Shown one piece after another: positions 1,768 to 58,838 of a stretch of 64,000 nt of DNA (its first letter is position 1; each line of letters starts with the position of its first letter). The notes under the pieces were generated by a model. The model was not told where the DNA came from, ran no database searches, and worked only from the letters and a program-made list of their open reading frames with translations. Position numbers and translations under genes: made by a program. Source of the stretch: Lytechinus pictus. Taxonomy: Eukaryota. The DNA lies in contig NC_087245.1 of assembly GCF_037042905.1 (NCBI RefSeq), positions 24,740,001 through 24,804,000 of the forward strand. Reading direction: 5' to 3'.

Positions 1768-2754
1768 GGTTCCACGAGCCTAATTACATCAGGAGGGCTA
1801 AAGATATTCGTTCGACCCAACCCATTCGAATTTTTGTCAATTTGATATTGCTGATTGACAAAAATGTATGAATGTGATTCAAAATCTAACACTGATTCTA
1901 GAAATGGTAACTACTGAACTTACTTCGCCCAAATTGGGAAGATAAATAAGTGACTTGGAACTATTTTTTGACTGGCGGAATAATTAGGGCTATTTTACTG
2001 TTTCAGTTGATGAATTCGATCGATTCATAGTTATCTTCATAAATGGCGATTTATTTTTAAAATGAGCTGGCTACGGTACCCTTTCCTGGTCAGATTTGGA
2101 ATGTCAGATATATATCCTATCCATTGGTAGTAAACATTCCACCCTCTAATTTCACATTTATTTTTTATGAATTTTTCAAAAGTGCCATTTTAACACACAA
2201 GTCTATGGGGAATGTTTTACGCGCGTGACACCTGTAAGTAATATGAGAAATCCCTAGTAGTGGATGGAATACCTGGCCAAACTCTTCAGTAGCAAACAAT
2301 TTCTCACTGATATCAATATGTTTAGTCATCAAGTGGTGCAAAAAATGGATTTAATGGCTAGCAGAGCTACATCAGGTAAAGTTAGTAGGTCTGTGTAGCC
2401 TAGGAATGTATGTAGATTGGTCAATGTATAGAGTCAAGGCCTCTTTATGTTCTGATTTATCATTGTTTTGTGTTAGTGTATATCACCTACTTAGCATTAG
2501 AAAGACCTATAGAAATTGCTCATGTTAAAATTGTTCTTAGGAAGGGGGTAGGTAGAGAGGAGATAGAACTTTAAAAACTTTACTGAAGATAACTAGAGTG
2601 GTACCTTCAAGAAGGTATTTAGAAAAGGGCACAGAGTAAGGTAAGGTATCTAATAGTGCTCAGCTAAGGAGGGAGGGGGGGGGCTGCTGTGTGCTGCAAT
2701 CTTAGTATAGCCCCCTCCCTCTTTATTAAACCATGTCATTTATAAAATTATCTT

Positions 2755-2795
<41 letters not shown>

Positions 2796-4214
2796 ATGTA
2801 TATATTATACTTCTTACATCTGAGAGGCAACAGCCCTAGGAAGATTTTGAATAGGTCAAATTCAAATATAATAAAGTAGTATCTCATTCTTTTATTGTTT
2901 CCTCATCCAATCTCATGTATATTTGGTAATTATGTTTGGGGCAGTTCTGGTATCCTGATATCTACACAGAATTTACATACACCTTTATATTACAATTGAT
3001 AGGGACCTATATTGTCATTGCATTCACTGTTGGGCTCTATGCAGGTAGGATTTGTATACATCCATATATAGTGAAAATAACATGTATGGGTAACACATTA
3101 AAATGGGTCATTGCATAGAAAATAGGCATTTTCAATGCATTTCTTTGTGCTAGTGTGAGTGTACAGATATAAAAGAATAGCAAAGTAGCTATTCAAAAAA
3201 ATAAAATACATATGTCATATAATATAGGTTCCACGAGCCTAATTACATCAGGAGGGCTAAAGATATTCGTTCGACCCAACCCATTCGAATTTTTGTCAAT
3301 TTGATATTGCTGATTGACAAAAATGTATGAATGTGATTCAAAATCTAACACTGATTCTAGAAATGGTAACTACTGAACTTACTTCGCCCAAATTGGGAAG
3401 ATAAATAAGTGACTTGGAACTATTTTTTGACTGGCGGAATAATTAGGGCTATTTTACTGTTTCAGTTGATGAATTCGATCGATTCATAGTTATCTTCATA
3501 AATGGCGATTTATTTTTAAAATGAGCTGGCTACGGTACCCTTTCCTGGTCAGATTTGGAATGTCAGATATATATCCTATCCATTGGTAGTAAACATTCCA
3601 CCCTCTAATTTCACATTTATTTTTTATGAATTTTTCAAAAGTGCCATTTTAACACACAAGTCTATGGGGAATGTTTTACGCGCGTGACACCTGTAAGTAA
3701 TATGAGAAATCCCTAGTAGTGGATGGAATACCTGGCCAAACTCTTCAGTAGCAAACAATTTCTCACTGATATCAATATGTTTAGTCATCAAGTGGTGCAA
3801 AAAATGGATTTAATGGCTAGCAGAGCTACATCAGGTAAAGTTAGTAGGTCTGTGTAGCCTAGGAATGTATGTAGATTGGTCAATGTATAGAGTCAAGGCC
3901 TCTTTATGTTCTGATTTATCATTGTTTTGTGTTAGTGTATATCACCTACTTAGCATTAGAAAGACCTATAGAAATTGCTCATGTTAAAATTGTTCTTAGG
4001 AAGGGGGTAGGTAGAGAGGAGATAGAACTTTAAAAACTTTACTGAAGATAACTAGAGTGGTACCTTCAAGAAGGTATTTAGAAAAGGGCACAGAGTAAGG
4101 TAAGGTATCTAATAGTGCTCAGCTAAGGAGGGAGGGGGGGGGGCTGCTGTGTGCTGCAATCTTAGTATAGCCCCCTCCCTCTTTATTAAACCATGTCATT
4201 TATAAAATTATCTT

Positions 4215-4255
<41 letters not shown>

Positions 4256-5673
4256 ATGTATATATTATACTTCTTACATCTGAGAGGCAACAGCCCTAGG
4301 AAGATTTTGAATAGGTCAAATTCAAATATAATAAAGTAGTATCTCATTCTTTTATTGTTTCCTCATCCAATCTCATGTATATTTGGTAATTATGTTTGGG
4401 GCAGTTCTGGTATCCTGATATCTACACAGAATTTACATACACCTTTATATTACAATTGATAGGGACCTATATTGTCATTGCATTCACTGTTGGGCTCTAT
4501 GCAGGTAGGATTTGTATACATCCATATATAGTGAAAATAACATGTATGGGTAACACATTAAAATGGGTCATTGCATAGAAAATAGGCATTTTCAATGCAT
4601 TTCTTTGTGCTAGTGTGAGTGTACAGATATAAAAGAATAGCAAAGTAGCTATTCAAAAAAATAAAATACATATGTCATATAATATAGGTTCCACGAGCCT
4701 AATTACATCAGGAGGGCTAAAGATATTCGTTCGACCCAACCCATTCGAATTTTTGTCAATTTGATATTGCTGATTGACAAAAATGTATGAATGTGATTCA
4801 AAATCTAACACTGATTCTAGAAATGGTAACTACTGAACTTACTTCGCCCAAATTGGGAAGATAAATAAGTGACTTGGAACTATTTTTTGACTGGCGGAAT
4901 AATTAGGGCTATTTTACTGTTTCAGTTGATGAATTCGATCGATTCATAGTTATCTTCATAAATGGCGATTTATTTTTAAAATGAGCTGGCTACGGTACCC
5001 TTTCCTGGTCAGATTTGGAATGTCAGATATATATCCTATCCATTGGTAGTAAACATTCCACCCTCTAATTTCACATTTATTTTTTATGAATTTTTCAAAA
5101 GTGCCATTTTAACACACAAGTCTATGGGGAATGTTTTACGCGCGTGACACCTGTAAGTAATATGAGAAATCCCTAGTAGTGGATGGAATACCTGGCCAAA
5201 CTCTTCAGTAGCAAACAATTTCTCACTGATATCAATATGTTTAGTCATCAAGTGGTGCAAAAAATGGATTTAATGGCTAGCAGAGCTACATCAGGTAAAG
5301 TTAGTAGGTCTGTGTAGCCTAGGAATGTATGTAGATTGGTCAATGTATAGAGTCAAGGCCTCTTTATGTTCTGATTTATCATTGTTTTGTGTTAGTGTAT
5401 ATCACCTACTTAGCATTAGAAAGACCTATAGAAATTGCTCATGTTAAAATTGTTCTTAGGAAGGGGGTAGGTAGAGAGGAGATAGAACTTTAAAAACTTT
5501 ACTGAAGATAACTAGAGTGGTACCTTCAAGAAGGTATTTAGAAAAGGGCACAGAGTAAGGTAAGGTATCTAATAGTGCTCAGCTAAGGAGGGAGGGGGGG
5601 GGCTGCTGTGTGCTGCAATCTTAGTATAGCCCCCTCCCTCTTTATTAAACCATGTCATTTATAAAATTATCTT

Positions 5674-5714
<41 letters not shown>

Positions 5715-7134
5715 ATGTATATATTATACTTCTTACATCTGAGAGGCAACAGCCCTAGGAAGATTTTGAATAGGTCAAATTCAAATATAATAAAGTAGTA
5801 TCTCATTCTTTTATTGTTTCCTCATCCAATCTCATGTATATTTGGTAATTATGTTTGGGGCAGTTCTGGTATCCTGATATCTACACAGAATTTACATACA
5901 CCTTTATATTACAATTGATAGGGACCTATATTGTCATTGCATTCACTGTTGGGCTCTATGCAGGTAGGATTTGTATACATCCATATATAGTGAAAATAAC
6001 ATGTATGGGTAACACATTAAAATGGGTCATTGCATAGAAAATAGGCATTTTCAATGCATTTCTTTGTGCTAGTGTGAGTGTACAGATATAAAAGAATAGC
6101 AAAGTAGCTATTCAAAAAAATAAAATACATATGTCATATAATATAGGTTCCACGAGCCTAATTACATCAGGAGGGCTAAAGATATTCGTTCGACCCAACC
6201 CATTCGAATTTTTGTCAATTTGATATTGCTGATTGACAAAAATGTATGAATGTGATTCAAAATCTAACACTGATTCTAGAAATGGTAACTACTGAACTTA
6301 CTTCGCCCAAATTGGGAAGATAAATAAGTGACTTGGAACTATTTTTTGACTGGCGGAATAATTAGGGCTATTTTACTGTTTCAGTTGATGAATTCGATCG
6401 ATTCATAGTTATCTTCATAAATGGCGATTTATTTTTAAAATGAGCTGGCTACGGTACCCTTTCCTGGTCAGATTTGGAATGTCAGATATATATCCTATCC
6501 ATTGGTAGTAAACATTCCACCCTCTAATTTCACATTTATTTTTTATGAATTTTTCAAAAGTGCCATTTTAACACACAAGTCTATGGGGAATGTTTTACGC
6601 GCGTGACACCTGTAAGTAATATGAGAAATCCCTAGTAGTGGATGGAATACCTGGCCAAACTCTTCAGTAGCAAACAATTTCTCACTGATATCAATATGTT
6701 TAGTCATCAAGTGGTGCAAAAAATGGATTTAATGGCTAGCAGAGCTACATCAGGTAAAGTTAGTAGGTCTGTGTAGCCTAGGAATGTATGTAGATTGGTC
6801 AATGTATAGAGTCAAGGCCTCTTTATGTTCTGATTTATCATTGTTTTGTGTTAGTGTATATCACCTACTTAGCATTAGAAAGACCTATAGAAATTGCTCA
6901 TGTTAAAATTGTTCTTAGGAAGGGGGTAGGTAGAGAGGAGATAGAACTTTAAAAACTTTACTGAAGATAACTAGAGTGGTACCTTCAAGAAGGTATTTAG
7001 AAAAGGGCACAGAGTAAGGTAAGGTATCTAATAGTGCTCAGCTAAGGAGGGAGGGGGGGGGGGCTGCTGTGTGCTGCAATCTTAGTATAGCCCCCTCCCT
7101 CTTTATTAAACCATGTCATTTATAAAATTATCTT

Positions 7135-7175
<41 letters not shown>

Positions 7176-8071
7176 ATGTATATATTATACTTCTTACATC
7201 TGAGAGGCAACAGCCCTAGGAAGATTTTGAATAGGTCAAATTCAAATATAATAAAGTAGTATCTCATTCTTTTATTGTTTCCTCATCCAATCTCATGTAT
7301 ATTTGGTAATTATGTTTGGGGCAGTTCTGGTATCCTGATATCTACACAGAATTTACATACACCTTTATATTACAATTGATAGGGACCTATATTGTCATTG
7401 CATTCACTGTTGGGCTCTATGCAGGTAGGATTTGTATACATCCATATATAGTGAAAATAACATGTATGGGTAACACATTAAAATGGGTCATTGCATAGAA
7501 AATAGGCATTTTCAATGCATTTCTTTGTGCTAGTGTGAGTGTACAGATATAAAAGAATAGCAAAGTAGCTATTCAAAAAAATAAAATACATATGTCATAT
7601 AATATAGGTTCCACGAGCCTAATTACATCAGGAGGGCTAAAGATATTCGTTCGACCCAACCCATTCGAATTTTTGTCAATTTGATATTGCTGATTGACAA
7701 AAATGTATGAATGTGATTCAAAATCTAACACTGATTCTAGAAATGGTAACTACTGAACTTACTTCGCCCAAATTGGGAAGATAAATAAGTGACTTGGAAC
7801 TATTTTTTGACTGGCGGAATAATTAGGGCTATTTTACTGTTTCAGTTGATGAATTCGATCGATTCATAGTTATCTTCATAAATGGCGATTTATTTTTAAA
7901 ATGAGCTGGCTACGGTACCCTTTCCTGGTCAGATTTGGAATGTCAGATATATATCCTATCCATTGGTAGTAAACATTCCACCCTCTAATTTCACATTTAT
8001 TTTTTATGAATTTTTCAAAAGTGCCATTTTAACACACAAGTCTATGGGGAATGTTTTACGCGCGTGACACC
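1768..8071. repeat. Tandem array, unit 1459-1461 bp, 4 full units plus a 465-bp partial
   Basis: Units start at 1768, 3227, 4687, 6146 and 7607; length differences match a poly-G tract of 9, 10, 9 and 11 G. Confidence 0.98.
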
Positions 8072-9984: not shown

Positions 9985-10110
9985 GACGTGGGGGCTCAGT
10001 GGCACAGCGCCCGCCTCATGAACGGGAGGTCGTGGGTTCGAGCCCAGCCGAGTCAAACCCAAGACTGTGAAATGTAGTTTTGTTGTCAGGTGCTCATCTT
10101 TTTAGGATGG
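9985..10110 (+). mobile_element. Degenerate tRNA-derived SINE
   Basis: A-box-like GGCTCAGTGG, B-box GGTTCGAGCCC; body resembles the SINE at 17325-17551. Confidence 0.6.
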
Positions 10111-10171
10111 AGAAGGTTAAGGTGACTTAGGTCCAACTGGGAGACAAAAAAGTTAAATAATACTGATATTA

Positions 10172-10472
10172 TTGTTATCATCATCATCATCATTTATCAT
10201 TATCATCATCATCATTTATCATTATCATCATCATCATCATCATCATTTATCATTATCATCATCATCATTTATCATTATCATCATCATCATATATCATTAT
10301 CATCATCATCATTTATCATTATCATCATCATCATTTATCATTATCATCATCATCATTTATCATTATCATCATCATCATTTATCATTATCATCATCATCAT
10401 CATTTATCATTATCATCATCATCATCATCATCATTTATCATTATCATCATCATCATCATTTATCATTATCAT
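10172..10472. repeat. Compound (ATC)n microsatellite with a recurring ATTTATCATT interruption
   Basis: Read directly from the sequence. Confidence 0.97.
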
Positions 10473-16872: not shown

Positions 16873-17047
16873 CACAGTAAAAAAAATAGCACGTTGTTTA
16901 AGCCTGTCACTCTAACAACAGGTTGTTTAAATTTTTTTGTAATTGTTTAAATTTTTTAAACAACTTGTTTAAAAAGTTTAAACAGTTGTTGTTAGAGTGA
17001 CAGGCTTAAACAACGTGCTTAAAATTTTAAACAGCGTTTTTACAGTG
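16873..17047. mobile_element. MITE with CAC...GTG ends and TA flanks; related copy at about 47349-47528
   Basis: Inverted repeat GCACGTTGTTTAAGCCTGTCACTCTAACAAC / GTTGTTAGAGTGACAGGCTTAAACAACGTGC. Confidence 0.8.
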
Positions 17048-29800: not shown

Positions 29801-32800
29801 CGTATATTGTGACCAAATGATCGTACGAGCAATTGTGAAAGCCCCTTAACTTAGGACGAACTGCTTTTCTGTAGACATTTTCAATACATTTAAATTCGTT
29901 CTGCGTGGCGGTGCGTGAAATATGTCTATACACGGAAATGAGACAAATGACATCAAATTGGGTGACAGCTCTTTTTTCTGAACTGACAAACTTTTTTACA
30001 GTTGGATTATTGAGCCTTAAGATTTTTTTTCTGATGAAGGAACCCTCGGATTAATGTCATAAATGTTTGCTTTAACCCTAAGACTTGAGGGGAGCTGGTT
30101 CTGTCCCGCCCCCTCGACATTTTTCGCGATAAATCGGCCGCGCGAATTTTTTTTCATCGTTCCGCTCTCTGACTTTTTTACTTTCATGTCTTGCCCAACT
30201 TTTAAGATCAAATTTGGGGCCCCGGGTACGCGGTTCCGAAGTAACGTAACATTTCGTAAGTGCATGCAGACCCAAAATTGCTCAAAAACGTGAATTCTTG
30301 TACAAATCCAATGCAAATTGTGTATTTAGCAAAAAATCATAGAATATGTCATTATTTCTCCTTCTACTGATTAAACTAAAATTAATTTCATCTTGTTTAT
30401 GGCCGGAATAAGGCTCCGAGAAATTTCATCGAAAAAAAATATCAAAAACATAGAAACACATAAGAAATTTAGAAAACAATAACAAAAATATGATATTGAT
30501 TTTTTAAGTTAATTTGATAAGAATTCTATAAAGAGTATTTGAATACAAAATTAACATTCAAGGGGCATTATTCAATTGGAGTAAACGTTTGAGTTTACGC
30601 ATAAATTAGCATAATTAATTAGCAATGAGATTTTTCACAGAATTTCATCTTACATTTTTTTAGAATTTATGCCATGGATTACGCACGTGCCAATTTTCGT
30701 TGCGATCGCACGATCGACGGCAGAGATCATAAGGGGGGGGGGCTGAATCAGCCTCCGTCTGCATAGGCGTCAAAATAGCCCAGTCTTTTTAGGGTTAACA
30801 CCCCCCCCCCCCCCCCTTGGACTAACGCGTGTCTTGATATATAGAATTTGAGTGTTTCGGAATAACGAACCTTATGAATAATGAACTTTCGGAATGACAA
30901 GCGTATATTCAAAGTGATCATGCTTCTAGACAATGTGTGATTCTCTTCTGTATTTTAGTAGAGTCTAAAGGGGTGCATTTTGACCAGCTAAAGGAAAGCC
31001 TCATTTCATTTACCGACGAAATACTTCCCTCCTACCCCGTCTATTTTTAGATCATTTCTGAATATAGAATCTAACATTTTGACTGGTTCTGCATCAAATT
31101 GTAGACAAAATATCGATGACAGCTCTTGCTCAGGACCAAATAATATAGGTTTTTATTCATGAAAGGCTTGTTATTTGTAGTACAATGCACTAATACGTAT
31201 TGACCTGATGTTCTTTCCATATTAAAACTATGTATCCTTAATAGTTTTTCATACTGATTCAATTCAGAAGTTTATGTCATTCAGCAGGCATTACGAAATT
31301 TATCAGATATGTCAAGAACGTAAGTTTTTTTATGAGATGTGAAAAAAAAAGAATAGAAAAGAAAGTTTTGACTCCAATTTGATTTGACATTATGTGGTCG
31401 TCGTATGTTTTCGTTATTTATGTTTTACCTGTCTGGTAGATTTATTCAAACATTTCAAGGCACAATATGACTCTTAAGTCAATGACTAAATACAACAATG
31501 ATATGTATCAGGATCTACAAAATATGCATTATCAAATTTTTCAGTTTTTAAGTTTTAAAATGAATAAAGATGATCAATTTCAGTGGGTATTTTCAGTTAA
31601 AAGAATAAATAATTTAAGAGTCAAATCACATGAAGGGGGCCCCCTTTAGCAGTTTCAGTAAGTAAGTTAATCCTCGAGGACCTTCGAATTCTGTTGCAAG
31701 TCTGTCAAAGTATAAATCCTTAGTTAAACTCCTCTAAATATAAATTTCCACTTGAATACAAATTAGACAAAAAACATCTTTTATGTGTTTTTTTTTTCGT
31801 TTCGTCATTGGTGTTTGTTTGTTAATTTCAATGCATTTTTTCTTATTTCTTTGTTTTTTATTGTTTGATTTGATTTGCCTTTTCTATATTTCAGTTTTAC
31901 AAGCTTGCTTTTATGTAGGTCCCATCATATTTCTTTGACTTGAATTAAGCTTTTACCTTATAACTCGACTGATCGTGTATTTATATTATGTTATTGTATA
32001 CTTCTCAGTTGTTTATAATTTAATAGTTATGTATTATTGTTGCTGCTTTATTTTTATGTCTAATGTCAATGAGAAATAATGAAAATAAATGAAATTAAAT
32101 TAAATATTTCCGAACTTACCTTGTGTCTCCCGTCCCAGGTGACAGATACATCTCAAACCTCCCTTCCTAAATAGTCTGCAGGTACAGACCCTTGGTTTTC
32201 GCCATTCGCATAGTGAATAATGCAGGGTCTGAAGCAGTGAGACTAGATTCACTATGTACTGTGGCTGGCTCTACGTATTTGACAAAGACAGAATCTTTGC
32301 GTCTAGTCTTTACTCTAGACCTGTTATTGGTTAAAGTGTCAAATATGAGTCCAGGAGCGGCGAGCCTGGGGAGAGGGGCGGGGGCACAGTGCACTCCCCC
32401 CCCCCCCCCCCACTTTTTGATCCACTGAAAAAGTGCCCAATTTTTACGCAAGAAAAATGCCCCCTCACGAACGTGTACCGTGCTCCTTTAATCGGAAGAG
32501 AACCCTATTTAGGTGTTACCAAGTGCCCTTTCTCGTATATGTGCCACCCCCCCCAAAAAAAAAAAAAATGCCCACTAACGGACGTGTTCTGTACCATTTT
32601 CCTTCTAAGATGTACCCGGTTTATGTGTAAGTAAGTGCCATATCTCGTATCAGTGACAAATTTTACCCACAATTTCCCCCTCACCATGCTCACGAACGTG
32701 TTCTGTGCTCACGAACGTGTTCTGTGCTCCCTTCACCTGAAAAGGACCAGTTTTATGCCGTTAGCAAGTGCCCTTTTGCCATCTTATAGGTGCCATTCTC

Positions 32801-35800
32801 GTATCAGTGCCCCCTTTTACCCAAGAAACATGCTTCTCACGAACGTGTTCTGTGCCCCATTCACATGAGAAGGACCCGTTTTATGTCTGAGTAAGTGCTC
32901 CCTTGCCTTCTTGTAAGTGCCGTTTCTCGAATCAGTGCCCCCTTTTCCCCAAGAACAGTGCCCCTCGCGAACATGTCCTGTCCCTTTCACCTGAGAAGGA
33001 TCCGTTTTATGCCGTTAGCAAGTGCCCCTTTGCCTTCTTATAGGTGCCCTTTCTCGTATCCGTGCCCCTTTTTACCTATAAGAAAAAAGCCCACCACGAA
33101 CTTCTTCTGCGCCCTTTTCTCCTGAGAAGGAGCTGTTATGTGTTGACGAGTGCCCATTTGCCTTTTCATAGGTGCCTGAAAAATCAATTTTTGTGTCCAA
33201 TGAGCGCACGGAGCGCCGTTCTGCTTCATTCTGCAATTACAAAATGAATGAAAATACTTGTAAAAGTAATCCTATGTGCCTTTCGTTAGTCATGTTAGTG
33301 GGGTTGATAAATAATTTTTTCTTTGTTTTAAGATCATGGCCGTACACACCGGGGGCAGTGCCCCCCCCCCCCAATTTTTTTTTTTAACTCACTTAATTGT
33401 ACTGCAGATTTTCACAAAATTCACCAAAAGTATGCACAAAATCCATCAATTTCACTTAACAAAATGCAAAAGCGCCTCAGTGATAAGCTCGGTCGCTTCA
33501 CTCTCTCGCTTCCGAGTTTTTCCAAAAAGCTAACGTGTGCTGCCCCCCCCCCAGCGAAAAAGTATACGGCCATGTATAAGAGAGTGTCCTTTTTTCCTTT
33601 GCCCCCCTCCCCCACTTTCAACTTCGCTCCGCCTCCACTGTATGAGTCTTTACTTGCAGACTATTTCCTAAATATGTGAGAGAAGAATCGGGGTATATTG
33701 ATTGACTCGGAGGCCCGGCTTCATGTTTGTTCTATGACCACATCAGTTGTCATCGGGTCTTTGGTGTCATCCAGACTCGAGATCTCGACCGATACTTCAT
33801 CACTGTCTTCGAGATCCATTGTCCATCGGTCCTGTAAATAATACTACGATCGGATAATATTTCGTTTTAGTCATCTCCTTCTGGCATTGTTCTGATTACA
33901 GTTGCTGGGTACATCCTGTCAAGGATGCTCATTCTGTCAAGTTCATGAACGAGGGTATCAATGTTTGCTGTCAATATGCCAATCACGTCATCATTAGCCG
34001 GACATTGACCGGTAACCATGGTAATATTGACCTGGGGGTGATGGGACTACCCTCGAGAAGCTGCTGTATTCTATACGATTCAATGAAATACCACGGAGGT
34101 CAGTGACGTAATGAGTGAAACATTTTGAGGGGCCAGACATGGCGGATGGAGCAACATTTCTATAAAAAAAAAAGATGTGAGCGAACGAAACGATGGAGCA
34201 AAAATTTCGACCTTTTTAATGCCAATTTTTTTTTTAAAGATTTTGACATAATACGCAGAAAAATATTTATCTCACTCTTTCTCTCTCCTATTATTTCTTC
34301 TTCTTTTATTTGTTGGTCGTGAAACAGTTAAAGTGATTGGTTAACATTGGTTTGACTTTTAAAAAATCTGAACTAGAAGGTCACACTTGTCACCTGTGTC
34401 TGTGATATGTTACAAAAGTGAAGCCCAGAAAAAATTGCGTTCGAAAATAATTATTTAGTGCTTCAAAAATTGAAATACAAAGTGACCGAAAACACAATCT
34501 TAATTTCATCCCATACACTTATGTGTACTATTTAGGCGTCTATAAGACGCCTATTTACAAAATCGGGGTTTGCCTTGTAGTTTTAGCTTTTCATTCTCAA
34601 TAATGGTTGTTTTCAGGGTTTATTAGTTCTAATACATGCACTTGTACACATGTCTCATCTTGGTTTGAGAATTTTTTTAATCGGCTGCTCACAAAGTTAA
34701 ACAATACCTTTAAGAGCCAACCCTCGCCCCCCCCCCCCCCCCCATCTGTACATCAGTGATGGCTATTCAAACAAGCCTTTATATCCATGATTGACCAGTT
34801 TGGTTGTCATCAGTGTGACAAAGAGGTTTTTAAAAGCTCCCAATAACCCATGAAAGAATACAATACTCCTTTTTAGGACTACTTTATATTTTATGATCCT
34901 GAAAATATACTAACCTCGCAAAAGGACTCTGTTAATACATGCATGCAAAGCTCCTCTGAATAGGAAATTTGACGAACTGCAGGAATTATATATTTTTTTA
35001 CTTTGATTTGATTCAAGTGTTTTGTCTTCTTAACGAAATACAAGGCTAATGATCTCAATGTAGATAACACATTTTTTGGTTTTACATTGTAAAATATGAT
35101 ATTGTTTGGTAAGCAAACAGACTTCCTGGTGGTGTCAATTTATTTAATTCATTAAGAATAAGTTTTGAACTGGAGCAATAGAGAAAATCGACTGAAATAA
35201 AATTATTTGTACTTTCATAACAAATATGTCGTTTTATATCGAATCTTGGAAAATATTCGTTTCAACTTCCCTTTATCAATTATTATTCCCTCTAAATGCT
35301 TTCTAATTTTAGGGATAGAGTATGCATATTTTCTAATGACAGATCCACAGCTTTAATTTTCGAACACTATAATGCGAAAGGCGACAAATGTTTAGCAATT
35401 TTAAGACCCAAAGTAAAATCACCAAGGAAGTGTGTATTTGTATCTACTTCTTTTAGTAAACCTGTTTTGACGTTCATTATGGTTAAGACATGAACGTCAT
35501 ACTCATCATATCGAGAAAACTGACAACTCTTCTTAACAGATAACAGGAAGTCGATTAACGTGGAGATTACATCGGCTGCAAGGATAAGCCAATTGTTAAC
35601 CGATTTATAGTAACATAATCCAAATGGAAGGCCGTGTAATTTACCCTAAATGACTGTTCATATTGCAGCTAAATTTATATTTGGGATGATTTTGAATAAA
35701 TTCAGCACCTTTTTTATGATGAAGTAGTTTGAGCAAAACATGTTCCTCCTAAGTGCTTTAATGATGGACACGAAATTAGTATTTCTAAACAGTCAATATC

Positions 35801-38800: not shown

Positions 38801-41800
38801 ACAGCTTGTATAAACAATCCATTACCGGTAATCATGCTTTAAAACATGACTGAGAAATGCAGAGAGTCAAGGGAAAATATATTAAAAACTCTAATAAAGA
38901 CGATATCTCTTCAAAATCGTAAATTGCGAATGATCAACGGCATACATTTTTTTTTATAATCATCAATATTATTTTGCAATGTTGTCGCGACAAAGAATAG
39001 TGATCAAATACTGGCCAAATACTTCGCAAATAAATTATTTTATCAGATTGGGGTTTAGAGCATTCTAACGAAGAAGTTTTATCGTCTTTATGTGAGTTAA
39101 AACTTAAAGATAAATGGTTAAATAGTCACACATGGAAGCATAAAACTTCACCCAGTTCTGCCAGTTATCAATCATCTACGCTAGCTGAATTATACATTTT
39201 CACATATTCTTTTATTCTCAAAGAAAACACACAGGAGTGCAAGCCTGCGGCGTCAATCACGATAAAAGCAATCGTTTTACATTCATAATAGCATTGAGCT
39301 CTTTGAAAGCTCCAATGTGCAGATTAATTGTTGATTTCATATCAGATTACATCATTGTAGAAATGAAGTACATAGTCCCCAAGCATGCCAAACAGGCGCA
39401 ATCAGACACAAACATTTATTGTTCATCTACCCATTCGATAATTCGATATGAAGGCAGAATATTTTTAGGAGTTTCCTCTTGACAACATTTTTTTTTATTG
39501 CGAAATAAAGGACGTTTGTGGTTCAACTTTTGTTATATTTTGGATGGAGCGAACATGGAAATATGATTGATTATTGGTATAAGTGAAAAAGAATATCATG
39601 AGTTTGCTTGTCATACAGCTGTATGCAGTTTTGTCAGGCAACCAATGATTTTACGTTCTCTTTGAAGGGTTTGGTAATCCCGATTTAAGGGTAGGGTAAA
39701 AGGACATCCACCTTGCTCTGAACTCTGGCCAGGACCTCTCAGATTCTTTCTCTGACAATCCCTCCATTAAGACATCGAACTTTAAACAAGCGTTTTAATT
39801 GAGGAGAGATCTAATTAGCCTGGTAAAAGAAGATAATAATAATAATAATATAGGGTATTTATATTGCGCACATATCCACCTTGTTAGGTGCTCAAGGCGC
39901 TCCTATATTACCCGGCTAAGCTAGGCGTTGGATGGATAATAAGAACTCCACTAAACTGTACTATAGCCTCCTGAACTATCTCCGTCCTGTGCAAGTCAAT
40001 TAGAGTTTTCACCAACATAACTATTGTCATTCTTATATCACATGCTATTTTTATTACTTCAAGTATATTTCACTTTAATCAAATGGAATATTCCTTTTTG
40101 TGTTACAGGTTCAATCTATCACCGGTCATAACATCACTCTAAATGTTCAAGCTAATGGACCTCAGTTATTAGAAGAATTTTGTCGGTGGCAGGCTGGATT
40201 CAATCCTATCAATGATGCTCATCCAGAACATTGGGACATCGCTACTCTTATTACTAGGTAATATTTAAAAAACATTCCTTAAAGGAGGAAAAAATCTTTG
40301 AAACAAGCTAGCTTGTTAGCTTGTGTCAAGTGTGAAAACGGGAAAACAAAATCAAAGAATAAGATCGGTAAATACTGAGAGCAATCTAACAAACAATAAA
40401 GAAAGTTATGCTCATAATGCTTTGGAGATTCCCATATTGACAATGCGAACAAGATCTTTGATGTCACGCAATTCCATTTGGACACTCAAAATATACTCCC
40501 AAAATATTTAATTTGTAATTGTAATGATGATACAAAGTACTCTTCGTCCGTGATTTATTTTGTGAACCAGTAATTACACACCTAGCCATAAAAAGAACAC
40601 GTTATCATACGGATAGAATTAATAAAAGCGATGATTTCAATGAAATATTGCTCGTTTTGGTGACACCACACATCTTGGTCGCATTGCCAGTAGGAAGATG
40701 TAGATGTCCACTGCATTAGTAGTCTCAACATTCAGATGCTCATAATTTTCCCCATTTTATTTCTAAAACTTTCAATGACCGGTTTCAATTGATTTGTATG
40801 ATTTATATAATTCAACTGATTCCAAGGGTTTCTTATAATAATCATGAACAAGAGAGATGCATTAATACAAAGATATTAATACAAATGTTAATGATATATT
40901 GAATAAGTGATTGGATGATTGATTGATTTATTTATTTATTGATTAATAGTTTGTCGATTGGTTGGTCGATACTTTGATTAGCAATGTATAGATTAAAATA
41001 ATTGATTTATTATTCGATGTATTTCCATTACAATCTATGAAATATTTTTGTAAGCTAATTCATCATAATTATGTTTAAATTATGTTTGATTGGTCATTTT
41101 AGTGAAGTGTGATTTAACGAAGCGTTCATTCTTAATCTCATTTTCTACAGAAAAGATTTATTCAAGTTATCAGGAACCTACCGTGATACTAACCTACTTG
41201 GAAGGGCATACATCGGGACTACATGTCAACGCTCATTACAATGTTCAGTAAATCAAGATGATGGCCTTACTACAGGTTCGGTTATTGCTCATGAAACAGG
41301 ACATAAGTAAGTCTTTGTTATCATCTTAGCCGATGAACTTTATGTACTCACCTTTCGACAAAACGATTAAGGAATATTGTTCGGTTGGATATAATAGCGA
41401 TTGCCATAATTTTTTTTTTTTTTTTTTTTTTTTTGGGGGGGGGAATTCTGGGGGCGGGCTATGTTTTTTTTCCCCTATATGGTATCAATGTTGAGAATGT
41501 TGACAATATTATTATCAATCTGATGGGTATGTATATGTAGATAAAATATAAAATATTTGTTTTACCTATTATATCTTAGCAAGACTAAGGCGCTTTTTAA
41601 AATGGCTAGTTGGGCCACATAGGCGTACAAACAAAATAATAATGCGATTAGAAAAACTTTATCCCCCCAAAAAAAAAAATCACCTGGTTGCCATTTTTGT
41701 CTCGCCTGCATAGCAGAGCGAGACTATAGGCGCCGCTTTTCCGACGGCGGCGGCGGCGGCGTCAACATCAAATCTTAACCTAAGGTTAAGTTTTTGAAAT

Positions 41801-44800
41801 GACATCATAACTTAGAAAGTATATGGACCTAGTTCATGAAACTTGGACATAAGGTTTATCAAGTATTACTGAACATCCTGCCTGAGTTTCAGGTCACATG
41901 ACCAAGGTCAAAGGTCATTTAGGGTCAATGAACTTAGACCATGTTGGGAAAATTATTTTCAAAATCTTAACCGAAGGTTAAGTTTTTGAAATGACATCAT
42001 AACTTAGAAAGTATATGGACCTAGTTCATGAAACTTGGACATAAGGTTCATCAAGTATTACTAAACATCCTGCCTGAGTTTCAGGTCACATGACCAAGGT
42101 CAAAGGTCATTTAGGGTCAATGAACTTAGACCATGTTGGGAAAATTATTTTCAAAATCTTAACCGAAGGTTAAGTTTTTGAAATGACATCATAACTTAGA
42201 AAGTATATAGACCTAGTTCATGAAACTTAGGCATAAGGTTAATCAAGTATTAGTGAACATCCTGCTCGAGTTTCAGGTCACGTGACCAAGGTCAAAGGTC
42301 ATTTAGGGTCAATGAACTTTGGCCAAGTTGGGAGTATTTGTTGAATTACCATCATAACTTTGAAAATGTATGGATTTAGTTCATGAAACTTGGACATTAG
42401 GTTAATCAAGTACCACTGAATATCCTGTGCGAGTTTCAGGTCACATGACCATGGTCAATGGTCATTTAAGGTCAATGAACTTTGGCCGTGTTGGGGGTAT
42501 ATGTTAAATTACCATCCTAGCTCTGAAAGTTTATGGATCTAGTTCATAAAACGTGGACATAAGAGTAATCAAGTATCACTGAACATCCTGTACGAGTTTC
42601 AGGTCACATGACCATGGTCAAAGGTCATTAAAGGTCAATGAACTTTGGCCGTGTTGGGGGTATTTGTTGAATTACCATCCTAACTGTGAAAGTTTATGGA
42701 TCTAGTTAATAAAACTTAGGATATAAGAGTAATCAAGCATCACTGAACATCCCCTGTGAGTTTCAGGTCACAAAACCAAGTCAAAGGTCAGTTAAGGTCA
42801 ATAAACTTAGGCCATGTTGGGGTAATTGTTGAAGTGCCATCATAACTTTGAAAGTTTATGGATAGAGTGAATGAAATGTGGACATGGGTGTAGTTGACAG
42901 TCTTAAGTCTCCGTTCAAATGTCATGTATGGTCAATGAACGTGGTATTATGTCATTATATGAATGATGTTTTTGTGAATGATTATTTTATAGTAGTTTTC
43001 AAAGTTAGCACTGCTGCTATATTAAATTGCGTAATGCAGGCGAGACTGCCAGAGGCGTTCCACTTGTTGTGTAATAGCATGCACACTTCATGTCATATTT
43101 CGTTTTCTTTTTGTTTTATTCTTTTTTGCTTGTGTACACAGTTTGAATCTCCATCATGATCCTGACTATGGGTGTAATAACGGACATCATGTCATGTCAT
43201 CAGCCAGACCTGTCGGCGTGCAGTCTTTCAAGTGGTCGCTCTGCAGTGCACAGCAAATAAAAATCTTTCTTACGTAAGTTATTCGATGGTGTTTCTGCAT
43301 TTATTGATAATTCAAAACATAAAACCACAGAAATCATCATGATCATAGAATATAATATAAAACACATACAAAATGATTGATCAAATCATAAATTGTGACA
43401 TTAACATATAGATAATATACATGATTCATGTTAATACAATTAAATATAATTGAACTGCAGGGGCCAGCTATAATAAGCTAAATGCCATAAAAATAAACAG
43501 CCAGTATTGGTGAGGCTGTGGAATGAGTTTCATTCACATTATCAGAGTTATAAAAATGAAGTATCAAAATTATTAAGATATATCAAATCAATATCCAAAG
43601 GCACTTGCCAATTTTTACTTTTATTTTGTAGACTAATGAGTAAAACTGCAAAAATGAGGGTACTTTGCAGATTCATGGGGGGTCCATTTTGGAAGGTGTC
43701 GGCTGGTATTTTCTAGCAGTCATGATGTCAGTTTCTATATGATTGTAATGTACACCCACGCTTATACCATGTAACTTATCAAATCATTGGCCTGCACTAA
43801 TTTCTGACTCGGCCTTCGCTTGCTTTAAATTGAAATCAAATTCGATATTAACATTCAGATGACAATTCTAGTCCTTGCTCAGGACAAAATTTGAATCTTC
43901 TTGTCAGATCTTATTCCAATTTCTGCAACGAAAACCAGATATTATTTTAGACAGATATTTGAAACAAAATACAGACCCTTCCCTATTATTGTCCCTAACC
44001 TAAATTTAAATATGATATTTAGTTTTCTATTTTCTTTCCATGACAGTAATCGGCTATCATCTTGCCTCAATGATGCACCAAGTATTGACGATCCAGAAGT
44101 AGACTTGTTAGTTGTGGATGACCTTCCGGGTCAACGATACAGTCTCCCAGCCCAATGTCAGTTGGCCTATGGAGCTAGCTCAACCGTGTGCTCACAATCT
44201 GTAAGATTCGAATGAGAAGGGTTTTTTTATAAAAAGTATGTTAAATATGACCTTCCAAACCGAAAATTAGAAGATAGGCAGAAGAGAAGCGCTTTCTTAG
44301 CCAATGGCAATTTAGAGACATATAAATCAAATTATAAACCAATTGACAAAATTCTAATGCAAAACTTTGGAACGTTGTGGCCTAGTGGATTAGTCTCTGA
44401 CTTTGAAAGTTACTATTATTTATCAAATGCAAACGAATTTAAACGAATTCAACCAATTGTGCAAGAAAATACTTTTTGTTTTAAATTTTATTTCAAAGAT
44501 CTGTCTGCATCTACAATGTGCCACTCTTTGTTACCATACTGTATGTTTCTTTTTTTCTCAAATCATCCAAGCAGGTATGTGGAAGTCTAGGATGCCAGGA
44601 AGGTGGTTACTGTCATTATTCTGGAATCATGATCATGGAGGGAACAACCTGTCGTCCTGATAAGGTATCATTTAATTAAACAGCCAATTAAAATAAATGT
44701 TTATTAAGATCTTTGATAGTCATTAATTTAACATGTGTCATGGTAGATTCCAACTGTCTATTCAAATAATTTATTTTAGAGTGGTAAAGATATTCATAAT

Positions 44801-47800
44801 AAGCGGATACTGATAATAACATTTTATATCTCAGATAGTATTCAACAAATCAACTTAATGATCATTCTTCAAATGTATTCACGATCTTAAACAGTATCTT
44901 GCTGTATAGAAAATTAGAAAATGATATCATCTTAAGCATGTTAAGAATGGGCGTTGTGGCGTGCGCCTGTAATCCAAGCTATGTCGGGAAGTTACAAATT
45001 GATGCAGAGGTTCGAGGTTCGAGCCCTGGTCACGTCTTTCGGATGGTGAGGTTTAAGGTCGGTCCCAGATGTAAATAATCATATCTGATTGATACACGTC
45101 TGACAAAAACTCAAATACACACATGTTAAGAATAAAAACAACAATGTTTTCCATATAACCAATGTTTGAAGAAAATTGCACTTGTTTAAGGAAAGAAAAA
45201 ATGTTTAATATATTGATTTTGGCCTTTTCTCCTTGCAATATGACTTTGTTTAATGTCTCCTGTGACAATATGTTATTTCTCTGTTCCATGCATGTATGCA
45301 GTGGTGTGTAAGCGGTAAGTGTGTGGCAGTCAGCGATGGACTACCGGGCCCTGTTGACGGTGGTTGGTCGGAATGGGAACGTCACTTCAGTGAATGTTCT
45401 AGATCTTGTGGGACAGGGATTCGAGTAAGAAAGAGAAAATGCAACAACCCTACCCCCGTGTACGGAGGTCTCGCGTGTCAAGGTGAAGGGCGGGATGTTC
45501 AGCTTTGTAATATGATGGTAAGATCAAACAAAATTTATAATACGTAAATACAATGAAACTACCTAATTGTATTTTTGTTCTTAAAAATTTGACTCCGCCC
45601 CTCCTCCCCCCACCCCAAACAAAACATGTGCCGACCAACCCTAATTTCCATCCCTTTTCTACCCTTGTCAACCTTTTTAACATGAAAAAAATATATAACA
45701 ACAGGGGAATTTCTCGCTGCACTTAAATCTTAGAATATTTATACAAGAGATTTACAGTACATACAACTTTCCGGCAGAGAAAACCCCGCAATATTATTCA
45801 CAAGCTTTTTTGCAGGTATTTTTTATATGCCTTGCTCACCTATCTCTGCCAATAATGTCTTTCAAGGGTCATAGCCATGAAATAGGAGCTTGCATGGCCA
45901 TCAGAATATTCGTAAAATAACCGCACCATTTTTGCTGCTTTTTGCTTATAGAGATGATGTAAAGTAATTGGATATCTATTGTTATTTTCAGTCGTGTCAC
46001 AACGTAACATTGGATGATTATAAAAATGAGCAATGTGCTGCAACAAACGGCTTAAAATTCAACAATCAGTACTATACATGGAGAGCCTTCTTATCATCGT
46101 TGCTCAAAGGTAAATATCACATGCAGAAGACGAGCCCCCAAACCTCCCCCATATATATGTATATAAAAGGAGACAGGGTGGCGCCAAAGTGGGGAAGGGG
46201 TGACCCCCCTCCTCTCTCTTTCTCTCTCTCCACCGCGATTATTCAAGTAGTGAAGGGGGAGAAGAGGAGGAAAAGGGGAAAAAACATAAAAAGTGGAAGA
46301 AAGGGCCATGTATAAGATACTTTTCAATTGAGAAAAAATGACATCATATTTAGGTCAGCCCCTATCAAAGTAATGGTGTCGCCCTTGTGCACATACACAC
46401 ATTCCACTCCAATTCTACTTGGGCAGGGTACAAGCATTGCATCCTGATATTGTCAGCTCATTCAATTCTTGATAATCAAAATATGCAGATATTTCTTTTA
46501 TTTTGATTGTATATTGACCACCCAAAATAACTGTATATCCTCCGAATCTTGTCTTAGGGTATACGGATTCATAATATCTATATAGTGAATTTGAATAGTG
46601 GCCGGCATTTTTAAGGCAATTTGTTGGAATGTTCCCCAGGATGGAGAAAGTGCATACATTGTGTGTGGACATGCCAGGATACGTTATATAAATATAAGTA
46701 TTATTATCATTATTAGTTACCAAAACTTTATATAGGCTTTAAGATTACCCTGATATTGTCGTGACCAACTTCTTCTTAATCGCTCAGATAACAACCAGCG
46801 TGAATCATATTCTATATTCTTGACAAGACTATTGACCATTTTTTTAACTAACCAAGATTCAATGTTTTGTATGAGTCTATCACATTGAAATTAGGGTATT
46901 AATAATGATAAGATAGAAGACAATAAGATATTATGGTATCAAATTTCTCCTCAAGTTTAAATCTTTACCACTCTAACACCAACAGGTAACAATGTTTGCA
47001 AGCTTCAATGTATATCAAATGCAAACTTCTACGCCCTCCGTGAGCCAGGGATGTATGCAGACGGTACACTATGCTGGCATCATGAAATTGGAGATCAAAG
47101 ACTAACAAAAGCCTGTGTCGACGGAATTTGCAAGGTAATTCTAATGCTTAAATGCATACCGTTTGATCAAATCATTTTACGTGAAAACGACAGAATTACG
47201 GTTACGGGGAGGGGGCTGATGTTGCGTTTGACCATGGAGGTCAAAAAGCGCCTCCACGATTTGACTTTGACTTTAAGCGAAAGGTCTATTTAATTTTCAG
47301 ATAAAAGGATCCATAAATCTTTGTAATTAGATAAACCATAGTTAAAATCACTGTAAAACTCTGTGAATTTTAAGGAGTTTGCTGACGCCCGTCACTCTAA
47401 CAACTATAGTTCAAGTTTTAAGAAGTTTTGAAAAGTGTTGAATATTTTTGGAGATTTCAAACAAGTCTAAACAACAACGTCTTGTTAGAGTGATGGGTTT
47501 AAACAAGGTGCTTCCAATTTTTACAGCAGTTTTTTTTATATACAATAACGAACCTTCGGAAATACGATTGCATCATGCCAAAGTGAGCATTTTCCTCTTC
47601 CATCGTCCTCTTACTTTATAGGAGTTTGGCTGTGATGGAGTGATGGGCTCTGGGCGTATCAAAGATGTATGTAGTAAATGTGATGGCTCTGGAAGAACGT
47701 GTAAGAGACATATGGGAAGAATTAGAAACGTCGGAGCAGTGCATGGTAAGAACATGGAGGTAAAATGGTAAGATTTTTATTTGTCATTCAAAAATTTTCC

Positions 47801-50800: not shown

Positions 50801-53800
50801 AAAATAAAATCTCAATTGAAATTGTGTGTTAAAGACGGAATGACGGAATAAGCCTTATGTTTTTCGTGCATAATATTATTCTAACAATTATGAAATAATT
50901 GCTTCTGGAAGGAAAATATGCCGACTCAAGAAATATTATTTTATTAGAGCGTTTGTGCCAAATTTTCGCCGCGGCCGCCGGAACGGCCACTGGGGTTATA
51001 TCTTGTCAACATTATTTGCTTTATTAAAATTGATTATGGGTAACTTAATATTAAATATTGAAATATTTCGACAATAACTAGAAAACGGCAAAGTCTGCAA
51101 AATTTAATGCATTGTGCTTAATAACTTTCATTAAAATAACCAAAACTTTCCTCCAGCATTTTATAATGTATGTATATTTTTTTATCTGTGCAAATAGAAT
51201 ATTGGAGGTGTAGCAGCCGAAGTCAGTGATTTATTTTGTGACCCATCTAAGAGGCCCTCAGAGCATCGTAGCTGCTCCAATCAACCCTGCCCAGTACCTA
51301 TATGGGTTGTTGGACAATGGAGTCTAGTAAGTTGATAAGATATTTATATACACTTATTTTATTTAAAAAATTATTTCAATATAAACTCTAACGTTGACCT
51401 TAAAATGGACCTTTAACCTTACCATGTGACCACCGACTGCAACATAACAGGGAAATAAAATACAGATGTCTGAAATAAAGTATAATGGGAGTCTTAAAAA
51501 TTTGCACATTTTCATTCGTAAAATGTGAGCAGTTCACTTAACCTCAATTTTGATGTCATTTTTTTTTAATTCTCGTGAAATTTCCTTTCAGAAAGAGTAT
51601 ACTATTTTATGGATAGGGTGAATACTTTCAAAGTTCTGACCATTTTTATACCGATAGATGCGCTATCATTAGCTTTGGGTTACGTAACACAAAATGGGGC
51701 GAGTTCAAGACACATGGCCTTTAAAGAGGCTGGTGGGTTGTTAATAAAACCGTAGGGCATTTAGATAACATTTACGCTTATTATAACAATGTTTTCATTA
51801 TTTTTTTTTATATCTTATCATCTTTCTGTTGTTTTTTTTTCAATGAAAGATCATAGGGACAGTCACCCGTCCCAGAAGCGGCTCAAGAGTTTAATTTGAA
51901 ATCTTTAGAATCAGTAATGAAATCATTTGTTTCTGAAAATTAATGACCTGTTTTCATTACTCGGTTATTTATTTGAATGAAATCCCCCATGACACAGAAG
52001 AACAATCTCAATAATATAATGCGTTAAGTTCTTATTTTGCCCTGGCAGTGCTCAGCGACATGTGACGTGGGAAGGAGAAAACGTGCGATGGCGTGCCTTC
52101 TGAATACAACGGGGGAACCAGTGCCTGGATTGTGCGATCCGAACCTCCAACCTGCAACCGAAGAACAGTGTGTTGAGGCACCCTGCCCCAGACCTACATT
52201 GGATGATAATGGTATTATCCTGTTCCGAGCCTTGCATGTGATTGTCATGTTATGTGTGAATGCATGCTTGCAGCTTTGAAAATAAATATTTTACAGTGTG
52301 AATAACAACTAACGCATGTATATTAAGGATCATAATGAGAGATGAATGACCATAATGTTATCTTTTATAATCAAATGAAAATCACTTTTGATAGCAGAAA
52401 CAGAGTACGGCTTCATGAGCCGAATTATAAAGAAAAAGTTCATATCTAACCTAGATGAACATCTTTTGGTAAAGGCTAATTTCTCTTACATGTGTCGTAG
52501 ATCTTGTGAGTAATAGAGCACATTGGTGATTGCTCATGCATACTGATTTAATCAGGCTTCTCTTTGAAAAGGAAAATTATGACAGAATCCGATTTAGTAG
52601 AAGATATTGGCTAATATTACAAAATTTTCAAAACCGGCCTTTCAGGTCAGTACATGATTTTGCATGTCATGCAATTTTAACAAAAAATGAATTTTGACGT
52701 GTTTTGTGTACTAATTGCATGCTGCCTATGTTTAACCAACGTACCTGCTTGATTTACTTTGTTGCTATCCAGTGACCATGTTAATACATTCTGCAAGCTC
52801 TTCAATGGACGCGAGTGACTCGATCACCCCATCAACATCCACCTCGCAGCTGACATCATATAAGACGACAGCGACGGCGACGTCGCATCATTCTATATCG
52901 CACAGCATGACACAAACAGTAGACAATGAATTGTATGCCATAGATAGTGATTCATTTACATCCGAGTCTCTTTCTTATATTAGTGTCGTCGGCATATTTT
53001 CTACAGATGCAACCAGAAATTCTGAACCACCGAATAACCCATCAACGACTAGCAGTGAGGCCGAGACAACTGTTGGAGCTACGAACATGCATGCCACTCT
53101 TTCTAGCAGTTTTCCAACCACCAGTTCAACATCCGATGGATTAAATAAGATTACATCTCAAACAGACACTCGTTCATCCCCGACTACAACCGCGGCAAGG
53201 AAATTGATATCAAAGTCACTTTATCCAAGTCTTTTAGTACCATCCTCAACTATATCCAATAGAGATGTCCCGTCCTCTTCCTCATCTCCGATATCAACCA
53301 CATCGTCATCCTTAGCGACATCATTGCCCACAACACCCATGCCCTCATCGCCGTCGCAATATCTATTGTCCCCGACATCATCATCATCATCATCGTCGTC
53401 GGGATTATTGACTGCCCACTTACCTTTAAATGAAGATTTACATGGTAACCAACTCCATGACGTAATATATTCTTCATATAGGGATGAAAATGTATTGGAT
53501 GAATCAGTTTTGCATCCCAAACTAGAAACCAACCATGCAACGCCGCCTGCATCAGTAGTGGAACCAGCATCGTCATCAGTGTCTATGCATGGAAATGTAT
53601 CTTATATCTTTTTGCGAGTCATTGTAGTTGCATGGATCGTCTTAGTTCTGCAATCGTTACCTCTCTTGGAAATACACTGAAAAGACTATAATGCATGTTC
53701 ATTGTTACGAGTATAAACCAGTTCTAGCCACCCTTGCCTAGATTTATCAAATAGAAAACTATTTATAATAGTGGAATTATATATTTATGGACTTGATTGC

Positions 53801-57547: not shown

Positions 57548-58838
57548 AATCAGGTTAAACCAAATTATTGATTCACTCGATGTATATGCCATACATCCTC
57601 ACAGTAGAACAAATGTTTTATTCTGTTTTTGTGAAAATCCTCGAAAACCCCCTCTAAATTTAGACTTGTAAGATTAACAGGGAATCTGTATTATGGTTGT
57701 CACATATTAACATGATTAATGTTTTAGCCAGCGTACGCCAACGTATAGGCTATGGCGAGCCGTTTTCTTAATCTTGGTTCTTGATGTCAAGAATTGCTTT
57801 TGTTCACGACTCAAAATAATTTAATCATATGAATAATTTGAAATTCTTGATATTTCATGTTATTGATAAAATACTTTTCTATGAAGAAATGTAATTTAAG
57901 GGAAAAATACTTCCTACCTTCGTCGACATATGCTCATTTGCTGTCTAAAACATCCAGTTGGGACCGCCCCCAAATTCTACTAGCCAGTAGAAACGATCCC
58001 GCAAGGTATTTTGGGTAATTACATTCAGGTTAAGATTAAGATTCATAGTGATCAATATCGAACCAACTATATATTTCTTAATGGTAGCCGTAAAATATTC
58101 GATCGGTTCATAATTTTGATGATATATGTTGCTCCAATGAAAAAGTTCATATTGATTAAGGTTTTCCCGCTCAATTTGAAGTTCTATCATTCAATTTTAA
58201 TATTGCACAGAGCGAATTCAAGAAAGCTTTTATCAATAGGGTCATTCAACTTTTCATTATTTGTCATTCTTGTGAGCATTTTATTAACTTTTTTGTCGGA
58301 CAACTTTTCTGGATTTTGATTGGCCAAGAAGCACAGTCCCTATGGTAACTGTCGGATAAAACAGGTTTTTTGAGCAAAAATGATCCCAGATGTAGATAGA
58401 AATTACCCTACATACTGTTAGGAAAATCTGCTCATTGGTAATTTTTCATTCATTTTCGTATAATCATAACTGGTTTTAAACTGAAGCGCATCTATATAAA
58501 CCTATTTACCTCAGCTTAAACTCGAGCTGCCATTTAATTCAATCGATCAGTGTATTCAAAGAATAATAATGCTATGTACCCATTCACCTCACATGGGTCG
58601 AGTGCAGCAATAGAGAAATTTACCTGAAAAGTGATATTGATTGAGACTTTTTTTTAAAGTTAAATGTTAAAAACTTTTTTTTTCATACAGAAAGTTCATC
58701 ATACTCAATAACATGCTATAATGAAATAATTTGCAAGAGATGTGGCCTGCTCGTAAGGGCGATCCGAGGAAATTTGGAGGGGTCGGTAATTTTCCGTTAC
58801 AAATTCATGGTGCGTGCCGGCCCGTTTTATCAAACAGT

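Follow-up and report, generated by a model that had tools for sequence, protein, structure and literature searches.

A putative 7SL-headed chimeric SINE with a Deu-type body in an intron of a sea urchin ADAMTS16-like gene

We analyzed a 64-kb stretch of Lytechinus pictus DNA, referred to throughout as the window, in which a 173-bp insert (44949..45121, + strand) lies between exact 12-bp direct repeats in an intron of an ADAMTS16-like gene. The gene spans approximately 20509-57544 on the + strand, as placed by tblastn with the L. pictus protein (1179 aa), whose domains are reprolysin, TSP1, spacer, and, at the C-terminal end, CUB. Exon matches selected by their location (between 7 and 11 for each protein) gave identities of 676/683 and 672/683 to two L. 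pictus records, 391/403 to a third Lytechinus record, and 534/630 to Strongylocentrotus purpuratus, and the exon just 3′ of the insert is 99% identical to the ADAMTS16-like protein of L. pictus. As the initial annotation of this DNA had proposed, the insert is intronic, sitting in the sense orientation between exons of this sea urchin gene, and the length and coordinates given there for the insert and its flanking repeats are correct (Table 1). For this cluster, the S. purpuratus records divide the gene among several shorter models. Within the ADAMTS gene, outside the match to the L. pictus ADAMTS16-like protein, a Ser/Thr-rich, 314-codon stop-to-stop frame (52736-53680, +) is possibly an unannotated mucin-like exon.

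Table 1 Features of the insert and its host intron, in window coordinates
Feature	Position	Strand	Basis
Host intron (GT-AG, 637 bp) in the CUB-bearing ADAMTS16-like gene	44665..45301	+	tblastn; boundaries read
Target-site duplication, left copy	44937..44948	+	exact repeat, found twice in the window
5′ Alu-domain head from 7SL (SRP) RNA with helix 3, UGU motif, and helix 4 (model positions 4-44)	44949..44992	+	Rfam RF00017
Pol III A box, 7SL type	44950..44959	+	8/10 letters as human 7SL A box (PMC7245038), by hand
tRNA-type head, 3′ part (variable loop and T-arm)	45007..45029	+	aligns to tRNA-headed SINE at 9985
Pol III B box, within T-arm	45016..45026	+	read from sequence
Deu/Nin-type conserved SINE body, start only	45029..45065	+	26/37 columns to AmnSINE1_HS Deu row
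Two-part stem-loop (predicted), a possible recognition signal from a LINE	45066..45102	+	fold
A-rich linker and short CA-type tail	45103..45121	+	read from sequence
Target-site duplication, right copy	45122..45133	+	exact repeat of left copy
Candidate pol III terminator, first downstream T4 run	45147..45150	+	sequence

The duplication had been described as perfect, and it is: on the + strand the 12-mer occurs at these two sites and nowhere else in the window. Given the composition of the flanks, an exact match of this length is expected by chance at 6.8 × 10−7 per offset and at 3.4 × 10−5 over 49 offsets. Across the window, exact 12-mer repeats with 150-250 bp spacing were found in 12 regions, mostly in or beside tandem arrays. 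An exact 12-bp duplication is of the kind left by target-primed reverse transcription, as in a SINE, and the insert is also SINE-like in size (173 bp, <1 kb) and in its mapped succession of head, body, and tail. That the duplication is undamaged suggests a recent insertion. The insert differs in composition from the intron around it (47% GC, with 10 CpG, compared with 26% GC in the intron flanks), and a sequence search recovered 1 copy of it in the window.

Other repeats were observed in the window. A tandem array at 1768-8071 comprises ~4.3 copies of a ~1460-bp unit at 99.9% identity and reflects either very recent amplification or an assembly artefact. Related 192-bp and 163-bp units form intronic tandem arrays at 41770-42885, and a GC-richer array at 32432-33176 holds 3.7 copies of a 128-bp unit. 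Dispersed palindromic pairs (16888-17047 with 47349-47534, and 1022-1613 with 40415-40832) are probably MITE-like non-autonomous DNA transposons.

The first ~43 nt of the insert had been likened by eye to the 5′ end of 7SL RNA, and the comparison with a family model bears this out. The Metazoa_SRP family of Rfam (RF00017) matched the head at 24.2 bits (E = 8.5 × 10−4, 2-kb scan), and the same match appeared in a whole-window scan over 4227 families at E = 0.027; because the gathering score of RF00017 is 70, we count the head match, obtained in the Rfam check proposed earlier, as partial. By hand count, 34 of the 41 model positions from 4 to 44 are identical, with 3 inserted letters, a longest unbroken run of identity of 13, and an end near 44992. 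Helix 3 keeps 6 of its 8 listed pairs, the other 2 being non-standard, and helix 4 keeps 3 of 3; this copy lacks helix 2, as model positions 1-3 coincide with unmatched letters of the target duplication. In the loop-loop register that we assume, the head can form 2 Watson-Crick pairs and 1 G-U pair. Three loop-loop pairs are described for the human domain (PMC4231752, PMC4238359), and the head also retains the UGU motif, described as the central SRP9/14 binding site (PMC4231752), and the G4-U23 wobble named in PMC4238359. As in SINE1 elements, then, the 5′ part of the insert is 7SL-derived by this partial RF00017 match.

Downstream of the head the likeness to 7SL stops, near 44992. Over 44990-45135, Rfam returned no SRP match and nothing other than three chance snoRNA matches, so the insert is neither a 7SL pseudogene nor built on the Alu plan with both 7SL ends. 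A 7SL retropseudogene of the P7SL type, which would be colinear throughout and carry poly(A), is accordingly rejected, and colinearity with 7SL along the full length, named at the outset as an observation that would count against a SINE, was not found. Nor did we find the combination that marks Alu, B1, Urop, and SINE1-1_EBu, namely both 7SL ends around a central deletion, a complete Alu domain, and a 7SL B box. Contamination by or transfer of a human Alu is rejected because the match covers the first 44 nt only, lies between target duplications, and sits in a sea urchin intron; the host 7SL is a simpler source of the head. A match to mir-1268 (E = 0.16) overlaps head bases and adds nothing, this family being, we assume, Alu-derived.

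By sequence, the insert contains an internal pol III promoter composed of an A and a B box, and there is no T4 run within the insert and hence no internal terminator. The two boxes are 56 nt apart, compared with 60 in human 7SL (PMC7245038). The B box that had been reported after the head is present, with the refinement that it belongs to a tRNA-type T-arm and is not 7SL-derived: a stem of 45013-45017 with 45025-45029 forms 4 of 5 pairs around a 7-nt loop. The T-arm piece gives no Rfam tRNA match, being too short for one; ARAGORN found no tRNA, and in the whole-window Rfam scan no tRNA match fell over the insert, while two other SINE heads there exceeded gathering. Letters 45030-45036, which follow the T-stem, could form a full 7-bp pairing with the start of a tRNA-headed SINE at 9985 (its first 7 letters), in the manner of an acceptor stem; we give this pairing no weight because 45030-45036 also align to the beginning of the Deu domain.

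The body following the T-arm resembles the start of the Deu domain. The alignment was counted by hand against the AmnSINE1_HS row in Fig. S4 of PMC7245038, and includes an exact 12-base run at 45033-45044, for which the chance of a shared 12-mer is 8 × 10−4 for that row and 6 × 10−3 for all rows of the figure. The Deu/Nin domain of DeuSINEs spans ~70-330 bp, with invertebrate Deu pieces of 70-120 bp (PMC4824008), and the ~37-nt piece in the insert is therefore cut short; the Deu resemblance first suggested thus holds for these ~37 nt, with the remainder of the domain absent. A scan of a 10-mer Deu motif gave 8 matches against 15 expected. Further downstream, the fold of 45061-45121 reached −11.2 kcal/mol (z = −2.22, 30/1000 shuffles as stable) and contains the predicted stem-loop; the whole 3′ part folds no better than shuffles (z = −1.19), and the stem-loop appears in that fold too. 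The final dinucleotide of the tail equals the first two letters of the target duplication, an overlap that would fit priming by the target end on the tail. BLAST within the 64-kb window found no match to the insert tail that could represent a partner LINE tail. We examined two weak colinear BLAST matches at 58384-58475 as a candidate LINE tail and discarded them. Overall, the chimeric build originally claimed for the insert could be mapped in order as a 7SL 5′ domain, a tRNA T-arm, a Deu-like block, and a stem-loop tail.

Two further SINEs in the window provide a local comparison. The first, at 9985-10472 (+), has a tRNA head (Rfam tRNA, 35.7 bits) and a body that, by eye, starts like the Meta-domain consensus and continues into a Deu-like block common to the insert, making it a possible Meta-Deu hybrid; a 300-bp ATC-type array follows it, and a target duplication was looked for and not found. 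The second, at 17547-17330 (−), is also tRNA-headed (31.8 bits), and since its next stretch is Meta-domain-consensus-like by eye, it is probably a MetaSINE like SINE2-1_SP or SINE2-2_SP. The T-arm and Deu-like block occur in the same order in the insert and the 9985 SINE, with ~45 extra bases between them in the latter. The score of the insert against the 9985 SINE was reached by 0/2000 shuffles with long-gap scoring and by 5/2000 with BLAST-like scoring, for a pairing noticed post hoc (BLAST E = 0.36) and a long-gap scheme that was picked after alignment and takes in the generic B box. With the insert body alone, 5/5000 shuffles reached the score. For the 17547 SINE, used as a control, the counts were 135/2000 and 893/2000. 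The best window-wide score of the insert body was at chance level (33/100 shuffles).

Outside the window, 5 or 6 of 11 sampled insert words were present in 18 of the 24 listed runs (8 coded studies, 3 coded organisms), a count that leaves out 6 rows with under 5 words; among the listed runs holding insert words, none was an RNA run. The insert sequence occurs in other samples, an observation that fits a repeat and a shared locus alike and gives no copy number. Pattern scans for motifs of the 3′ part in microbial collections yielded 0 and 1 loci in viral_contigs, 3 in metagenome_contigs, and 0 and 0 in genome_contigs. These 4 loci are unrelated to the insert, as three match the pattern only and look bacterial and the fourth matches an 18-mer only, and the blanks carry little weight because the collections are microbial.

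We consider it probable that the insert is a recent, near full-length chimeric SINE in which 7SL RNA took over the front end of a tRNA-headed SINE with a Deu-type body, and which would be read by pol III and copied by a LINE. The proposed mechanism is modeled on the anatomy of the insert and on Alu, whereas the modules, boundaries, duplication, and host gene are observed directly; we infer the family status, the host 7SL as donor, transcription, and the LINE partner. Template switching during reverse transcription is the most likely way in which a tRNA-headed Deu-type SINE would have exchanged the front part of its tRNA head for the initial ~46 nt of 7SL RNA. Such a route has precedents: 5S-headed DeuSINEs join a small RNA to a partial tRNA and a Deu domain and are attributed to template switching (PMC4824008, PMC4758252), and a chimeric route joining 7SL to other parts has been proposed for hagfish SINE1-1_EBu (PMC7245038). 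Pol III would then transcribe the element from a composite promoter, with the A box of 7SL and the B box of the tRNA T-arm, and would terminate at the first T run beyond the insert. The 5′ domain of the RNA may fold as the SRP Alu domain, bind SRP9/14, and carry the RNA to ribosomes that are making the LINE protein, whose reverse transcriptase would recognize the 3′ stem-loop and CA-type tail and integrate a new copy by target-primed reverse transcription, with the 12-bp duplication as the result. The partner LINE would presumably belong to a stringent, tail-recognizing clade rather than being a poly(A)-driven L1.

The length of the retained 7SL segment bears on the role of the head. A 46-nt 7SL 5′ domain is reported to be both necessary and sufficient for SRP9/14 binding and for one round of Alu retrotransposition, and to be unable to propagate because it lacks a B box (PMC11760393). 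The 7SL length retained in the insert coincides with this domain, and the tRNA fragment supplies a B box. By analogy with Alu, we put the chances that the sea urchin element binds SRP9/14 at about even. More tentatively, and with somewhat less than even confidence, we suggest that the insert represents a young, abundant, and independent sea urchin SINE1 lineage, the first such lineage beyond the vertebrates, and a minimal-Alu element occurring in nature that would combine a ~46-nt SRP9/14 domain and a tRNA B box with SRP9/14-mediated ribosome docking and a tail-recognizing LINE.

The strongest alternative, which we regard as possible if on balance doubtful, accepts a true 7SL-headed family and limits the head to a part of the promoter: it would supply the A box and have no SRP9/14 role, and the LINE-type tail would mobilize the element as in tRNA SINEs. 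The family claim is common to this and to our preferred explanation, and mechanism alone differs. In a fold of the head alone, P is 0.73-0.82 for helix 3 and 0.66-0.75 for helix 4, and the energy is unremarkable relative to shuffles (z = 0.27, 584/1000 as stable); in the fold of the whole element these helices are buried and drop to P = 0.12-0.20, which counts against the head folding unaided. Equilibrium predictions of this kind leave out co-transcriptional folding and the effect of bound protein. The absence of helix 2 and of the 3′ Alu strand is also consistent with a promoter-only head, and a young head would look intact from youth alone. However, the 7SL piece reaches ~30 nt past the A box and stops at the same point as the minimal SRP9/14-binding domain.

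It is unlikely, in our estimation, that the element is as described and already catalogued in Repbase or Dfam, in which case novelty alone would fall. The Repbase suffix _LVa presumably denotes Lytechinus variegatus. Repbase contains _LVa entries such as RTE-2_LVa (PMC5786205), so sea urchins of this genus may be curated there. Still less probable is a one-off chimeric retrocopy, produced when a LINE enzyme working on a truncated SINE RNA switched to 7SL and made a single insertion, as in U6/L1 chimeras. The one copy in the window, the lack of related loci in the microbial-collection scans, and a 7SL part below the 60 nt of SINEBase (PMC3531059) all fit such an event; yet the join yields a complete and normally spaced A and B promoter without an internal T4, and the body is ~45 nt shorter internally than the 9985 SINE, suggesting an edited master. 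Finally, a standard Deu SINE of tRNA origin, with a decayed 5′ end that happens to resemble 7SL, would account for the score under gathering, the window-wide E value, and a remainder that looks like a tRNA SINE, but is very improbable given the extent of identity to the SRP model and its longest run, both hairpins in register, the lack of a tRNA match where the two other window SINE heads exceed gathering, and a per-family E of ~6 × 10−6 (0.027/4227), which applies because SRP had been named beforehand.

SINEBase defines a SINE by a size under 1 kb with head, body, and tail and by at least 100 interspersed copies per genome, and applies a cut-off of 60% identity across no fewer than 60 nt of tRNA, 5S, or 7SL, with stated exceptions (PMC3531059). 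The insert falls short of that length, with 83% identity (34/41) to 7SL over 44 nt and a tRNA remnant of ~23 nt from another source; this lowers strict filing and not the working model. Judging from its modules, the insert would work like a SINE1 but without the retention of both 7SL ends seen in the Alu plan.

SINEs derived from 7SL are held to be very rare, with three origins, all in vertebrates (PMC7245038, PMC13023118). In 2020 the hagfish element was called the first evident SINE1 outside Euarchontoglires (PMC7245038), a 2024 account places 7SL SINEs in primates, rodents, and hagfishes (PMC10886601), and shrew moles were added in 2026, with all sharing the central 7SL deletion (PMC13023118). 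That both 7SL ends flank a near-identical central deletion in every case has been taken to mean that this arrangement is required (PMC7245038, PMC13023118). Our search of titles and abstract openings in the openly accessible literature listed no report of an invertebrate 7SL SINE. If the insert belongs to an echinoderm family with the 5′ domain only, it would add an invertebrate origin, break the both-ends pattern, and offer, in a sea urchin genus used in the laboratory, a natural test of the cell-culture finding that 46 nt suffice. Were the minimal-Alu reading true, selection in 7SL SINEs would act on the 5′ domain and not on the whole Alu domain.

Among known systems, hagfish SINE1-1_EBu resembles the insert in joining a 7SL head to parts of an older tRNA-derived SINE and, by our proposal, in having a non-L1 partner and a LINE-type tail, with target duplications of similar order (~17 bp compared with 12 here; PMC7245038). 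The hagfish element retains 96 nt from the 5′ side of 7SL together with the 3′ end, the B box of 7SL itself, and a whole Alu domain, and it has a bipartite RTE tail with AAC repeats (PMC7245038). The insert has ~44 nt of the 5′ domain, a B box from a tRNA fragment, and a Deu start. Alu, B1, and Urop share with the insert the 5′ Alu domain, the A box, helix 3 and helix 4, plus the UGU motif; they consist of 7SL minus a ~183-nt central deletion plus poly(A) and are moved by L1 (PMC13023118), whereas the insert lacks the 3′ 7SL part and a poly(A) tail and its body modules are non-7SL.

The overall plan of a pol III RNA, a partial tRNA, and a Deu domain is that of AmnSINE1, SINE3, and OS-SINE1 (PMC4824008, PMC4758252, PMC3747384). 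Those 5S-headed DeuSINEs carry 5S in place of 7SL, the tRNA remnant of the insert still gives its B box, and the Deu domain of described DeuSINEs is 70-330 bp long compared with ~37 nt in the insert. SINE2-3_SP of S. purpuratus, a sea urchin element with a Deu body and CR1Y_SP as its listed partner (PMC4824008, PMC3747384), is a plausible relative of the insert's donor; it has a tRNA head, unlike the insert, and was compared by description only. The minimal Alu constructs SA46 and AY46 contain the same 7SL 5′ segment and show SRP9/14 binding and one round of retrotransposition (PMC11760393). They are engineered, use an external promoter, and depend on poly(A) and L1 (PMC11760393), whereas the sea urchin insert would be a natural counterpart with a B box of its own.
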